Assembly: GCA_019358935.1 (NCBI GenBank)
Contig: JAHHIK010000026.1
Span: 1 to 64,000 of the forward strand
Direction of reading: 5' to 3'
DNA: 64,000 nt
Source: Tolypothrix carrinoi HA7290-LM1
Lineage (GTDB): Bacteria > Cyanobacteriota > Cyanobacteriia > Cyanobacteriales > Nostocaceae
Shown: piece after piece, positions 44,837-49,364 of the stretch
How positions within the stretch are numbered: position 1 is the first letter of the stretch
How the letters are laid out: every line of letters begins with the position of its first letter
The notes under the pieces: generated by a model
The model's database searches: none
What the model was told of the DNA's origin: nothing
The model's input: the letters and a program-made list of their open reading frames with translations, nothing else
Made by a program: the position numbers and the translations under genes

Positions 44837-45088
44837 AGGACTTACGCAAAAATTCTCTCTTTTCCTCATTCCTCTGTGAACTCTGCGTCGCGCCAGTCGC
44901 TACAACGGGGGGAACCCCCGCAACGCGCTGGCTTCTCTGCGGTTCGTTTTTTCACTCGTAAATTGGCTGTGCCTTGTTACGCAATTCTTGTGGGCTGCTG
45001 CCTCATCCGATCTGACCGGAGGCAACCTCTTTCCTTCGTGTTCTTCGTGTCTTTGCGGTTCGTTTTTTCATGACTTTGCGTAAGTCAT
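44837..45088. mobile_element. MITE-like element carrying nested repeats
   Basis: AGGACTTACGCAAA...TTTGCGTAAGTC TIRs; internal CTCTGCG repeats and a hairpin element at 44890-44934. Confidence 0.65.
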
Positions 45089-45171
45089 ATTTTTGTGAAA
45101 AACACTGTAATTCCGTAATTCGGAAAACAAGCTTGTATAAATTTAAAGGTAGAACATATGAGAAAGCAAAT

Positions 45172-47250
45172 ATGACCGAACAAACAACTCAAATACCCAA
45201 CTTATACGCTTTATTGATTGGTATTGACTACTATCTACCAGGTCAATTACCGGATGGAGGTTATTATGCGAGCCTTGGAGGATGTGTACGCGATATTAAA
45301 CGGGTAGAGGATTACCTCAAAAAGACGCAGAAGCCGAAGCAAATCTTTAAGCTGACATCTTCTAATACCGGTGCTACGGAACCACCCGAACCTAAAGAGC
45401 AATTGCCTACTTACGAAAATATCGTTGCGAAGTTTCACGCAATTACTGAGATAGCCCAAAAAGACGACCAAGTTTATATTCATTATTCTGGTCATGGGGG
45501 GCGTGCAAAGACAATCTATCCAGAATTGAAGGGTGCGGGACAACCTGATGAAGCGCTTGTACCGATGGATATTGTCAAAACAAATGAACGCTATCTCCGA
45601 GACGTTGAAATTGCAACACTCCTGAAAAAGATGGTGAATAAGGGGTTAGTTGTCACAGTGGTGTTTGATAGCTGTCACTCTGGAGGTACTACACGAGGGG
45701 ATACGGCAATTCGAGGACTGGAAGGAGAACCGGACACGACATCACGACCTACAGACAGCTTAGTGGCATCGCGTGAGGAATTAATTAATAACTGGCTTGA
45801 GATTACAGGGGGAACAGCTCGCAAAGCTAATGCAGGTGATTGGCTTCCGGAATCGCGAGATTATGTTTTGTTAGCAGCTTGTCGCCCTTCGGAGTATGCT
45901 TTTGAGTCTGTATTCAATGGTAAGGAGAGTAATGGAGCGCTTACTTACTGGATGCTAGATACTTTAGCTAACCCAAGTCCAGACTTGACATATAAGTCAC
46001 TTTACGATCGCGTTTACGCCAAAGTCCAAAGTCAATTTCAAACCCAAACACCGATGCTATTTGGCGAGGGTGAACGTCAAGTTTTTGGCAGAAGTTACAC
46101 AAATGTACATTATACAGTAAATGTTCTCAAAGTAGATACTGCTAGAAATCGGGTGCTATTAGATGCAGGTATAGCACAGGGACTGGGTGAAGGGGCAAGA
46201 TTTGCTATTTATGCACCAGGTACAACAGATTTTAGCGAGAAAAACAAGCCGTTAGCGATCGCCCAAGTTTCAGCAGATATTACTCCCGGTGACGCTTGGG
46301 CTGTGATTGACCCAAATTCGCTGCGTGGAAATATTCAGCAAGCATCTCCGGCAATTATGTTATCAGCTGCGATCGCACTTGTGCGGCGAGTTCGTCTGTT
46401 TGAGAAACAAGACGATAGCACGAAATTGATGAAAAGTCAAACGGATGCACTCACAGCAGTCAAAGCTGCAATTCCGAGAACTGGCAAAGGTTGGGTAGAG
46501 TTAGCAAATGAAGGTGAACACTATCAAGTTGCGATTAATACTTCGGGCGAGTATGAAATATGCGATCGCAACGGTACGCCATTTCCCAATTTACGACCAG
46601 CGTTGTTAGTAGGCGATCGTGATGCTGCGGAAAACGTAGTTAAGCGCTTAGTTCATCTTACTAAATACCAGGCTGCCCAAGAACTGGAAAATCTTTCAGT
46701 TTTAACCAACAAGTTGGTAGTTCAGTTAACTGACAAAAACAAAAAGCCATTAGCTGAGCCTACTAAACAAACATTGCAAACTGAAGAAAATACATTTTTA
46801 TATATCAAGAATGAGTCTAACCAAGACTTGAATGTTGTCGTCATGGATCTTCAGTCAGATTGGGCTATTTCTCAACTTGACATATTAGAAGATGGGGCAC
46901 CTTTTGTCACTTTTAACCCGAAGCAAGAAGAATTGATTCGCTTAAGTTTCAAACTGCCAGAGGGGTATAAAGAAGGTAAAGACATCTTAAAGGTATTTGC
47001 GACAGTTGGACCTGCTAAGTTTCGCTGGCTAGAATTACCGTCCTTGGACAAACCGATTAAAGCAAGAAAAGCAGCATTCGATGAATATGACGAGAATACA
47101 CCCAGAGGTGGTGGCGATCCACTTGACAAACTTTTGTCAGCTATTAGTGCCGATCCTGATGAGATACCTCCTACCCGTGAAGCACAATTTATGAGTTCAA
47201 ATCGCGGCTGGACGACAAAAACTGTGACAATCACTGTGAAAGCGGTTTAA
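45172..47250 (+). CDS. Caspase-like protease (peptidase C14) with C-terminal extension
   Basis: ALLIGIDYY, GCVRD and catalytic dyad motifs HYSGHG and FDSCHSG. Start MTEQ. Confidence 0.9.
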   Translation: MTEQTTQIPNLYALLIGIDYYLPGQLPDGGYYASLGGCVRDIKRVEDYLKKTQKPKQIFKLTSSNTGATEPPEPKEQLPTYENIVAKFHAITEIAQKDDQVYIHYSGHGGRAKTIYPELKGAGQPDEALVPMDIVKTNERYLRDVEIATLLKKMVNKGLVVTVVFDSCHSGGTTRGDTAIRGLEGEPDTTSRPTDSLVASREELINNWLEITGGTARKANAGDWLPESRDYVLLAACRPSEYAFESVFNGKESNGALTYWMLDTLANPSPDLTYKSLYDRVYAKVQSQFQTQTPMLFGEGERQVFGRSYTNVHYTVNVLKVDTARNRVLLDAGIAQGLGEGARFAIYAPGTTDFSEKNKPLAIAQVSADITPGDAWAVIDPNSLRGNIQQASPAIMLSAAIALVRRVRLFEKQDDSTKLMKSQTDALTAVKAAIPRTGKGWVELANEGEHYQVAINTSGEYEICDRNGTPFPNLRPALLVGDRDAAENVVKRLVHLTKYQAAQELENLSVLTNKLVVQLTDKNKKPLAEPTKQTLQTEENTFLYIKNESNQDLNVVVMDLQSDWAISQLDILEDGAPFVTFNPKQEELIRLSFKLPEGYKEGKDILKVFATVGPAKFRWLELPSLDKPIKARKAAFDEYDENTPRGGGDPLDKLLSAISADPDEIPPTREAQFMSSNRGWTTKTVTITVKAV

Positions 47251-47275
47251 TCCCAAGTGCGTACAAAGCCTGCCC

Positions 47276-47333
47276 AGAAACCCGGTTTCTTGAAGAAACC
47301 GGGTTTCTGAAGTTTGAAGAAACCCGGTTTCTG
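47276..47333. repeat. AGAAACCCGGTTTCT palindromic repeats (possible bidirectional terminator)
   Basis: Three palindromic units between convergent genes; similar pair at 63029-63066. Confidence 0.7.
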
Positions 47334-47338
47334 AAGAT

Positions 47339-48208
47339 TCAAGCCGCACAAAAAATAGGGGCAGGCTTGAAACCTACCCCTACTTGTGGTATAATCCGCC
47401 CAACTGCGGCGGCTACGAGTCTTAAGCTATCAACTAAATCCACCATGTCTTCTAAAGACAGCGCTTGACGGGCATCAGAAACGGATTTTTCCGGTTCTGG
47501 GTGACACTCGATAATTAACCCATCTGCGCCACAAGCTACCGCAGCTTTCGCCATAGCTGCTACCAATTCGCGTTTGCCTACGGCGTGGGATGGATCTACA
47601 ATTACAGGTAAGTGAGTAATTTGCTTGAGAGCCGCTACAGCCGCTAAATCCAAGACGTTGCGGGTGTAATCATCAAAGCTGCGAATACCTCTTTCGCACA
47701 GTACCACATTTGGGTTGCCGTGACTTAAAATATATTCGGCTGCCATAACGAATTCTTCAATTGTCGCGGCTAAACCACGCTTGAGGAGTATCGGCTTACC
47801 GGCTTGTCCTAAAGCTTTGAGCAAGTCGAAGTTTTGCATGTTGCGGCTACCAACTTGCAGCATATCAGCATGGGTGGCGATCGCTTCAATTTGCGAGATT
47901 GACATAACTTCGGTGACAACTGGGATATTGTAACGCGATCGCACTCTTGCCAAAATTTCCAGTCCTTCTTCTCCCATTCCCTGAAAGGCGTAGGGTGACG
48001 TTCGCGGCTTGTAAACACCGCCACGCAAAGCTTGTACGGGCGCAGCAGATAGCTTTTGGGCGACTGTTTCCATTTGCTCTAAGCTTTCCACCGTGCAAGG
48101 TCCACCGATAATCACCAGTTCTTTACCGCCAAAAGCGACTTTTTCAGAGACATTGACGATTGTTTGGTGGTGAAGATGAGATTGTGAAGCAAGTTTGGCA
48201 TTAATCAT
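47339..48208 (-). CDS. aroF: DAHP synthase, class I-beta, catalytic core only
   Basis: IIGGPC, RGGVYKPRTSPY, LLKRG, CERGIR and VDPSH motifs; 289 aa; AAGGAG RBS. Confidence 0.93.
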   Translation of the reverse strand: MINAKLASQSHLHHQTIVNVSEKVAFGGKELVIIGGPCTVESLEQMETVAQKLSAAPVQALRGGVYKPRTSPYAFQGMGEEGLEILARVRSRYNIPVVTEVMSISQIEAIATHADMLQVGSRNMQNFDLLKALGQAGKPILLKRGLAATIEEFVMAAEYILSHGNPNVVLCERGIRSFDDYTRNVLDLAAVAALKQITHLPVIVDPSHAVGKRELVAAMAKAAVACGADGLIIECHPEPEKSVSDARQALSLEDMVDLVDSLRLVAAAVGRIIPQVGVGFKPAPIFCAA

Positions 48209-48229
48209 CGGTTCGATTCTCCTTACAAT

Positions 48230-48259
48230 AAAAAAGCCCAGAACTTTTAAGTTCCGGGC
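48230..48259 (-). terminator. Attenuator terminator 2
   Basis: Minus strand GCCCGGAACT-TAAA-AGTTCTGGGC-TTTTTT; the G-U pair forms only on the minus strand. Confidence 0.85.
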
Positions 48260-48286
48260 GCGTTCGATACATCAGCATGACGCTAT

Positions 48287-48349
48287 TCACCCGGAGCTTG
48301 CCCCGCGCCAAAAGTAAAAACCATAAAACCAGCTACCGAAATGAGTCAT
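48287..48349 (-). CDS. Aromatic-rich leader peptide 2 (MTHFGSWFYGFYFWRGASSG)
   Basis: AGGAG RBS at 48362-48366; 8 of 20 codons are F/Y/W; in-frame GTG at 48352 is an alternative start. Confidence 0.85.
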   Translation of the reverse strand: MTHFGSWFYGFYFWRGASSG

Positions 48350-48366
48350 CACGCTGAAAATCTCCT

Positions 48367-48401
48367 AAAAAAACAAAAACCGCAGAGTTCGCTCTGCGGT
48401 T
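48367..48401 (-). terminator. Attenuator terminator 1
   Basis: Minus strand AACCGCAGAG-CGAA-CTCTGCGGTT followed by TTTGTTTTTTT. Confidence 0.85.
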
Positions 48402-48431
48402 CACCGGGCTGTTTCCACTGGGAAACTTGAC

Positions 48432-48488
48432 TCACCCCCGGTGAACCACCCTAAACCAAAAATAAAAGTAGGAATTACTGCTTAACAT
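48432..48488 (-). CDS. Aromatic-rich leader peptide 1 (MLSSNSYFYFWFRVVHRG)
   Basis: Six consecutive aromatic codons TAC TTT TAT TTT TGG TTT. Its 3' end carries the antiterminator arm GGTTCACCGGG. Confidence 0.8.
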   Translation of the reverse strand: MLSSNSYFYFWFRVVHRG

Positions 48489-48537
48489 TTGCGCGGTGCT
48501 TTGTTGTGAAATTTCATGTAAAACTACATTAACAAAG

Positions 48538-48567
48538 AACTTATCACAGCACTTCTAACCTTGTCAA
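48538..48567 (-). promoter_or_regulatory. Sigma70-type promoter of the aroF leader
   Basis: TTGACA (48562-48567), 18-bp spacer, extended -10 TGaTAAGTT (48538-48546). Confidence 0.6.
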
Positions 48568-48602
48568 GGCTCCCACCAGACCAAAAAAGAGTTAGAAGTT
48601 AG

Positions 48603-48706
48603 GTAGAGACGTTCCACACCGAACGTCTGTACAAAAGGCGCGGAGTTAGGAGTTGTAGAGACGTTCCACACCGAACGTCTCTACAAAAGGCGCGGAGTTA
48701 TAAGTT
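48603..48706. repeat. 52-bp tandem duplication of a GTAG palindrome unit
   Basis: GTAGAGACGTTCCACACCGAACGTCT(G/C)TACAAAAGGCGCGGAGTTA x2. Confidence 0.85.
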
Positions 48707-48821
48707 ATAAGTTGTAAATTATAAATTATGATTGCGACTCCCCACTCCTCCACTCCCCCACTAAGAGCACTCCTCCACTCCCCCACTCCCCACTAAGAGC
48801 ACTCCCACCTTAAGTTTGATT

Positions 48822-49364
48822 ATGCCTAGTTCCAAAATATTAGCCGTGCCTTTAAATTATCAAGGAGTTTACCCTTGCCCAGTCTGTCGTGTTGGTAAAA
48901 TTCGCGACATGCATTTAATGGAGGCTATGTCTTGTGACTTCTGTCATGAGATTTTTACCGTCAATCTAGAACAACAGCAACTGAAGATGCCTTCTCGTCA
49001 ACCACCGCTGACTTGGCGTTGGAATGGCTTTAATTGGACAGAAACTCAGTTGGAAGGTGTGGAATTGGGTTGGGGTTATGCCCTAGGTGCCGTTGCTTTT
49101 GTGCTTTTTCCGACTATTATCATCGGCATAGTCGCTTACAATTTTCCTTTAGATCCACATGCTCCGATTACTTGGTTGCCTTCTATCTGGACTTGCTTAA
49201 CCTTTTTGCTGCATTTCTCAATTATTGTTTGGCTGTTGATTGAGATTTATCAGGTTCCTCTTGGTGCGTATTGGAGAGGTATCGTCCGATGGAGAGAAGT
49301 CCGAGCGACGGTTACGAGCGCTCGGAACTTCCAAAGAAATAGCGTTATCAGAAACGGGGAATAG
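48822..49364 (+). CDS. Hypothetical Zn-ribbon membrane protein
   Basis: CPVC...CDFC followed by two hydrophobic helices. Confidence 0.75.
   Translation: MPSSKILAVPLNYQGVYPCPVCRVGKIRDMHLMEAMSCDFCHEIFTVNLEQQQLKMPSRQPPLTWRWNGFNWTETQLEGVELGWGYALGAVAFVLFPTIIIGIVAYNFPLDPHAPITWLPSIWTCLTFLLHFSIIVWLLIEIYQVPLGAYWRGIVRWREVRATVTSARNFQRNSVIRNGE

Follow-up and report, generated by a model that had tools for sequence, protein, structure and literature searches.

How is a DAHP synthase that lacks a regulatory domain kept in step with the demand for aromatic amino acids? The question was raised by aroF of Tolypothrix carrinoi HA7290-LM1, which lies at 47339–48208 on the minus strand of the 64,000-nucleotide stretch of DNA that we analysed (the window), and for which an earlier note had proposed control by two leader peptides in tandem. 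DAHP synthase is the first step common to Phe, Tyr, and Trp synthesis. Along the minus strand, the order of elements was a promoter, leader ORF 1, terminator 1, an AGGAG, leader ORF 2, terminator 2, a second AGGAG, and aroF; the two ORFs, the two terminators, the two antiterminator pairings, and both AGGAG sites were all re-located where the earlier note had placed them. Judged by its sequence, the element is very probably a tandem, trivalent attenuator, and we consider it likely that two ribosome-mediated transcription attenuators in series replace allosteric feedback in controlling this auxiliary, regulator-less DAHP synthase.

The aroF product is a 289-amino-acid type Iβ DAHP synthase consisting of the catalytic barrel only. 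It scored above the profile cut-off for this enzyme type (PF00793, DAHP_synth_1; TIGR01361), it contained the motifs that we take to be catalytic, and its match to NCBIfam PRK08673 started at profile position 69. The closest structural relatives by sequence, PDB 1vs1 and 1zco, are equally short, barrel-only type Iβ enzymes, presumably archaeal and unregulated. In the Pfam search, the N-terminal ferredoxin-like/ACT domain PF18152 (DAHP_snth_FXD) was absent from aroF and from the enzyme of the Microcoleus vaginatus locus L062; the two T. carrinoi paralogs, of 351 and 354 amino acids, each had it, and by inspection one DAHP synthase paralog sat among trp-like genes. N-terminal domains of this type mediate feedback, and because the domain is missing, the short aroF product is probably insensitive to it. 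A match of at least 67% identity to aroF was present in 50 of 301 genomes sampled from the phylum, with the next match at 53%. In a quick tree, unrooted and unfinished, 34 of 34 short forms fell on one side of a branch with an SH-aLRT value of 100. Viral contigs gave two distant matches, which were uninformative. Chlorogloeopsis has three DAHP synthase genes, which UV regulates differently (PMC7693272).

The leader region stood out by several measures, far beyond what chance would give. Within 47900–49000, the terminator scan listed terminators 1 and 2 and no others, and the 306-nt leader RNA had a fold that beat 100 of 100 shuffles (z = −3.6). Among 94 genome-wide candidates consisting of a short ORF, a terminator, and a gene, leaders 1 and 2 ranked at the top with 6 and 7 aromatic codons per 8 codons, the runner-up having 3. 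An Rfam scan of the locus (Trp, Phe, His, Thr, and Leu leaders and others) gave no family at the gathering score, its five matches (E = 1.2–5.7) falling far below, and the Rfam trp and phe leader models matched neither unit. The putative sigma-70-type promoter (48538–48567, minus strand) consists of TTGACA, an 18-nt spacer, and a TG-extended −10 element, TGATAAGTT (TAAGTT). The promoter named in the earlier note was present in the sequence, but it was absent from the listing of a consensus scan, its −10 element being a poor match to the consensus. It is supported by conservation: in 111 of 114 loci the same pattern lay no more than 170 nt ahead of the leader-1 ATG, usually 43–52 nt away.

Leader ORF 1 (48432–48488, minus strand) encodes 18 amino acids, MLSSNSYFYFWFRVVHRG. 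A Shine-Dalgarno-like site was found before this ORF neither in T. carrinoi nor in any of 114 loci. When unit 1 was anchored on its RNA motif alone, the leader ATG was in frame 0 in 114 of 115 loci and in each of the other frames in 0 of 115, and the 9 codons upstream of the motif included a mean of 6.0 aromatic codons in frame 0 versus 2.3 and 1.4 in the others. The control codons Tyr-Phe-Tyr-Phe-Trp (48456–48470, minus strand), defined by sequence comparison, were aromatic in 568 of 575 cases over 115 loci, all of which had Phe, Tyr, and Trp together (115/115), and the Trp codon was 4 codons ahead of the antiterminator strand in 114 of the 115. Antiterminator 1 (48398–48447, minus strand) joins 48447–48437 with 48408–48398 by 11 bp and encloses an inner hairpin (48426–48411). 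Its 5′ strand lies inside the ORF just beyond the control codons, at a fixed spacing, and it is mutually exclusive with the base of terminator 1 (48367–48402, minus strand; terminator scan). The overlap between the two structures, as the earlier note had drawn it, was confirmed as a pairing but was restricted to the terminator base, and the 6-bp top of terminator 1 may coexist with the 11-bp antiterminator. In 52 unit-1 sequences, 94.7% of the antiterminator-1 cells were paired and both-side changes occurred in 4 of the 11 pairs, that is, the helix covaries; the 8 core pairs of terminator 1 were 100% paired, with one compensatory pair in 4 sequences. A small hairpin (48429–48447, minus strand) spans the leader-1 stop codon and shares a strand with antiterminator 1, to which it may be an alternative; 95.3% of its cells were paired in the 52 sequences, with mostly one-sided G-U changes. 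The score of the unit-1 structure as a whole was reached by 0 of 500 shuffles, a control that is blind to relatedness. In two loci (L099 and L117), a stop codon truncates leader 1 right before the antiterminator strand, and the RNA switch is intact.

Unit 2 begins with the leader-2 ribosome-binding site (AGGAG; 48361–48368, minus strand) immediately 3′ of the terminator-1 U tract; of 111 loci, 59 had a Shine-Dalgarno-like site ahead of leader 2. Leader ORF 2 (48287–48349, minus strand) encodes 20 amino acids, MTHFGSWFYGFYFWRGASSG, and an in-frame GTG lies ahead of its ATG. Its control codons (48331–48308, minus strand) specify Phe, Tyr, and Trp, and all three aromatics were present in the blocks of 106 of 106 loci counted, the last Trp being part of the anchor. 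The last aromatic codon was 13 nt from the antiterminator strand in 95 of 110 loci. Antiterminator 2 (48250–48298, minus strand; 48298–48288 with 48260–48250) takes the entire 5′ arm of terminator 2 (48228–48259, minus strand; terminator scan). This pairing, which the earlier note had placed correctly, contains one C·A mismatch in the T. carrinoi genome. Over 50 sequences, 91.9% of its cells were paired with no covariation signal, only 1 cell having a both-side change; terminator 2 was 94% paired, and its basal pair was compensatory (G-C/A-U) in 18 of the 50. In addition, we found a segment absent from the earlier note (48272–48281, minus strand), located 3′ of the leader-2 stop and complementary to the leader-2 start region (48357–48345). 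The duplex formed by these segments was present in the minimum-free-energy fold of the T. carrinoi leader; for 81 of the 111 loci compared, its strength exceeded that of 95% of shuffles (mean, −11.6 versus −5.4 kcal/mol). Comparison of units 1 and 2 did not establish a common origin; cross-matches between them were weak (E = 0.016–0.96) and attributable to shared codons and U tails.

We pooled 80 and 50 loci and removed 6 duplicates, leaving 124 distinct loci including that of T. carrinoi. The tandem was present in 116 of these, 112 being recognised by pattern and 4 more by covariance models. Four loci had a single unit (unit 1 alone in L125 and L129, unit 2 alone in L123 and L128), one (L078) had only unit 2 within its 365 available bases, and in another (L087) an IS605/TnpB gene interrupts the tandem; the sequences of L011 and L025 end about 100 bases from the gene. 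Carriers included Nostoc, Scytonema, Fischerella, Microcoleus, Floridaenema, Stenomitos, and Hydrococcus. The range of the element is broader than Nostocales. These locus counts overstate independence because the loci are kin, with many from Nostoc and Microcoleus. The attenuation geometry of trp/phe/his type claimed in the earlier note was supported by conserved ORFs, control codons, spacing, and stems; these were shared by many families of the class, and antiterminator 1 and both terminators covaried. In genome G164 (L156:215–1474 and L154), an IS605/TnpB gene is inserted at the leader-2 start, and the units are about 1.6 kb apart. In several loci, L004, L012, L019, and L087 among them, short tandem repeats made the spacer that separates aroF from terminator 2 as much as several hundred bases longer, and the units were intact. 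Genome G050 contained an aroF remnant (L155:1304–1650) that lacks unit 2 and the start of the gene, with unit 1 joined to an internal gene fragment.

Each covariance model (R1 for unit 1 and R2 for unit 2) gave one firm match in the T. carrinoi genome. In 80 further genomes, 53 of them outside the class, firm matches were found in G164 and G050 only, and G137 had two weak R2 matches; these few matches do not amount to absence because about 42 candidates were scored per genome and the leader of L167 was missed. In these searches the units were found solely directly before short aroF or an aroF remnant. Among 36 long-form or other paralog loci, both T. carrinoi paralogs included, R1 matched none and R2 gave one weak match, to L167; four of the 36 came from the host class, and leaders farther upstream of long-form genes would escape such a comparison because many of these genes sit inside operons. 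The L167 leader (L167:617–780; genome G100, outside the class) is single, with the YFYGFYF core of leader 2, an identical promoter type, and a terminator/antiterminator pair. It precedes aroH, a PF18152-bearing aroF, and tyrA in a genome that is 91% complete and 5% contaminated. Since this aroF keeps PF18152, the link between the leader and the missing domain is not absolute. Two crude scans limited to ATG starts (94 and 27 candidates) found no convincing leader at other biosynthetic or synthetase genes of T. carrinoi and no tandem Thr leader.

Codon use within the leaders bore on whether the ORFs are translated and what they sense. Tyr codons of the two control blocks varied synonymously (157 TAT/74 TAC and 115/125), Phe and Tyr were swapped within the blocks, and the N-terminal leader codons were free to vary; codons beneath the antiterminator strand were fixed at all three positions. 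TTT made up 217 of the 221 Phe codons in one block and 288 of the 297 in the other (505/518), against 75% genome-wide. An RNA-only element, either a protein-binding attenuator or a riboswitch with ORFs incidental to a U-rich motif, would fit the U-rich control region and the missing Shine-Dalgarno site of leader 1, but it is very improbable given start codons that were frame-specific (114/115 versus 0/115), third positions that changed synonymously, an invariant TGG, and the lack of an Rfam family at the gathering score. The ORFs could also be read for decoding speed over amino-acid supply. All control codons begin with U, and tRNA-Phe, -Tyr, and -Trp share the A37 modification; loss of this modification or broad translation stress would then slow the ribosome at U-starting codons in the same architecture. 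The TTT preference agrees with such sensing, and MiaA modification has been linked to trp attenuation (PMC13434334). However, the U-starting codons for Cys, Leu (UUR), and Ser (UCN) did not substitute for the aromatic ones, only 7 of the 575 unit-1 control codons being non-aromatic, and the target gene exactly suits amino-acid supply; we regard sensing of decoding speed as unlikely.

Somewhat less probable still is nascent-peptide arrest, in which the peptide itself would stall the ribosome on a small ligand, as in TnaC or ErmBL, and drive the same RNA switch. The conservation of the peptides exceeded that expected of composition, with Pro after the last leader-2 Trp in 60 of 71 distinct sequences, and in ermB two leader peptides act together (PMC8274638). 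Against this, RNA pairing accounts for the C-terminal residues (the Val codon is GTT in 64 of 64), T. carrinoi leader 2 has Arg at the position of that Pro, Phe and Tyr interchange, and the switch is kept in L099 and L117, which terminate leader 1 early. The idea that the terminated RNA or the peptides act in trans as the main product, with attenuation secondary, has a precedent in rnTrpL/peTrpL of Sinorhizobium (PMC7298713), and the promoter is strong and conserved; it is nevertheless extremely improbable, the units having been found, in the genomes scanned, only directly before short aroF or its remnant and once each in the T. carrinoi genome. Some action in trans is compatible with tandem attenuation, as the two are not exclusive.

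To see how amino-acid-sensing attenuators of this kind might behave, we folded RNA cut at the polymerase position and let the ribosome mask the 13 nt beyond its P site, assuming equilibrium and this footprint. In unit 1, with the ribosome stalled on any of the five control codons, antiterminator 1 kept hold of the terminator base in 113–114 of the 114 loci; it did so in none of the 114 when the ribosome stood one codon past the block, and in 112 without a ribosome. In unit 2, stalls at the beginning of the block preserved antiterminator 2 in 92 of 106 loci, a number that fell to 48 across the block; the corresponding counts were 2 for a ribosome on the stop codon and 39 for no ribosome. The earlier note had supposed that two serial gates would give a steeper and tighter response; these models suggest that the gates are non-equivalent, untranslated unit 1 being open and unit 2 mostly shut. 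The geometry resembles that of the E. coli trpL and pheL attenuators, although unit 1, which is predicted to read through when untranslated, differs in this from the trp leader. In T. carrinoi alone, a 16-nt cover shifted the unit-1 boundary upstream and excluded Trp, and when the cover was set to 11 or 13 nt, antiterminator 2 was weak for stalls on the distal codons. Equilibrium folding of the same leader gave a partial switch in unit 1 and none in full-length unit 2, where terminator 2 always won. Because of this outcome and the weak distal stalls, the unit-2 switch would have to be kinetic.

When charged Phe-, Tyr-, and Trp-tRNA are plentiful, the ribosome would cross block 1 and cover the GGUUCAC strand, and terminator 1 would be completed. 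A shortage of any one aromatic tRNA would stall the ribosome in block 1, so that antiterminator 1 keeps the terminator base and the polymerase continues. Read-through of terminator 1 would expose the leader-2 binding site, and the same test would be repeated at unit 2; transcription of aroF would thus require passage of both gates. The regulated gene encodes the first step for exactly the three residues in the control blocks. Since both gates are needed, the feedback-free enzyme would be added only in aromatic starvation, beside two domain-bearing paralogs. The models also allow a more specific reading, which is tentative and which we hold to be somewhat less likely than not, namely a two-stage logic gate in which unit 1, having no Shine-Dalgarno site, is open unless a ribosome crosses in time, and unit 2 opens only when initiation on leader 2 is followed by a stall. 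The tandem might then answer aromatic starvation and reject general translation failure. Unit 2 would be shut by default because the leader-2 start region is locked by the segment 3′ of its stop. For the M. vaginatus locus L062, 24 RNA runs were available, all as contigs. Of the four compared with the locus, two had a greater summed depth over the leader than over most of the gene, but such contigs cannot rank parts of a transcript or show its ends, and we give this difference no weight. The distance from stop codon to terminator was within 12 nt in 18 of 170 cases (median, 44.5), as given by a crude caller with no reference values.

Other features were noted around the locus. Just upstream of the promoter (48603–48706 and 48735–48805), a 52-nt direct repeat containing internal palindromes occurs twice, and there are also short tandem-like repeats. 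The divergent gene beyond them (48816–49364, plus strand) encodes a 182-amino-acid product in which hydrophobic segments accompany two CxxC motifs, and it had no Pfam or NCBIfam match; its homolog is the divergent neighbour of the aroF remnant in G050 (L155). Three 24-nt palindromic repeats (47272–47337) directly follow the aroF stop between convergent genes, and the gene convergent with aroF (45070–47250, plus strand) encodes a 726-amino-acid protein with a caspase-like (Peptidase_C14) N-terminal domain.

The element offers a conserved, cloneable test case for attenuation in cyanobacteria, for which a 2016 paper from authors engaged in attenuator surveys saw no reliable data (PMC4833913). The universality of transcription-translation coupling has been questioned (PMC7858274); attenuation needs a ribosome close behind the polymerase, and the element therefore provides a direct test of such coupling in the phylum. 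It would also suggest how large cyanobacterial genomes divide labour among their three DAHP synthase genes, the natural single-unit loci would let the value of a tandem gate be measured, and a probably feedback-free enzyme and an aromatic-amino-acid sensor would become available for engineering. If the two-stage gate is true, cyanobacteria would have working transcription-translation coupling, allosteric feedback would have been exchanged in evolution for RNA-level control across an enzyme clade, and the element could be one of a wider set of cyanobacterial tandem attenuators before stripped-down auxiliary enzymes.

The earlier note knew of no characterised leader-peptide attenuation in cyanobacteria, let alone a tandem form. 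In the largely open-access literature covered, which also included PMC2965389, PMC11109978, and PMC13613805, we found neither a cyanobacterial leader-peptide attenuator nor a tandem biosynthetic one, and that claim held to this extent. The part that we covered of an attenuator table (PMC1173090) contained no cyanobacterium, and Brenes-Alvarez 2016 (PMC4734099) did not mention the element in its text or six supplements. Outside the phylum, leader attenuation of DAHP synthase is known (PMC11802643, PMC4046766, PMC8632094), and for this reason the novelty is confined to three aspects, namely occurrence in this phylum, the serial arrangement, and the association with an enzyme that has no regulatory domain; the mechanism itself is textbook, and these three aspects appear to be undescribed.

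Like the present units, E. coli trpL and pheL, as treated in PMC11802643, combine control codons, alternative helices, and a U-tailed terminator, but each senses one amino acid in one unit. Two leader peptides precede one gene in ermB (ermBL and ermBL2), as here; that system, as described in PMC8274638, differs in being antibiotic-induced translational attenuation with no serial terminators and no amino-acid sensing. Acholeplasma uORFC-13-1 is a predicted uORF with an intrinsic terminator before aroF, and in this it resembles the T. carrinoi locus, but it is single and Phe-only, being a prediction from 24 sequences of one genus (PMC8632094). The nearest counterpart is aroR-aroF of Corynebacterium glutamicum, where an aromatic-codon leader peptide likewise precedes DAHP synthase and stalling leads to read-through (PMC11802643, PMC4046766). 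Whereas aroR is a single unit with Phe-Tyr-Phe that responds to Phe and not to Tyr, before a feedback-inhibited AroF (PMC11802643), the element described here has two units, includes Trp, and stands before a domain-less enzyme in another phylum.
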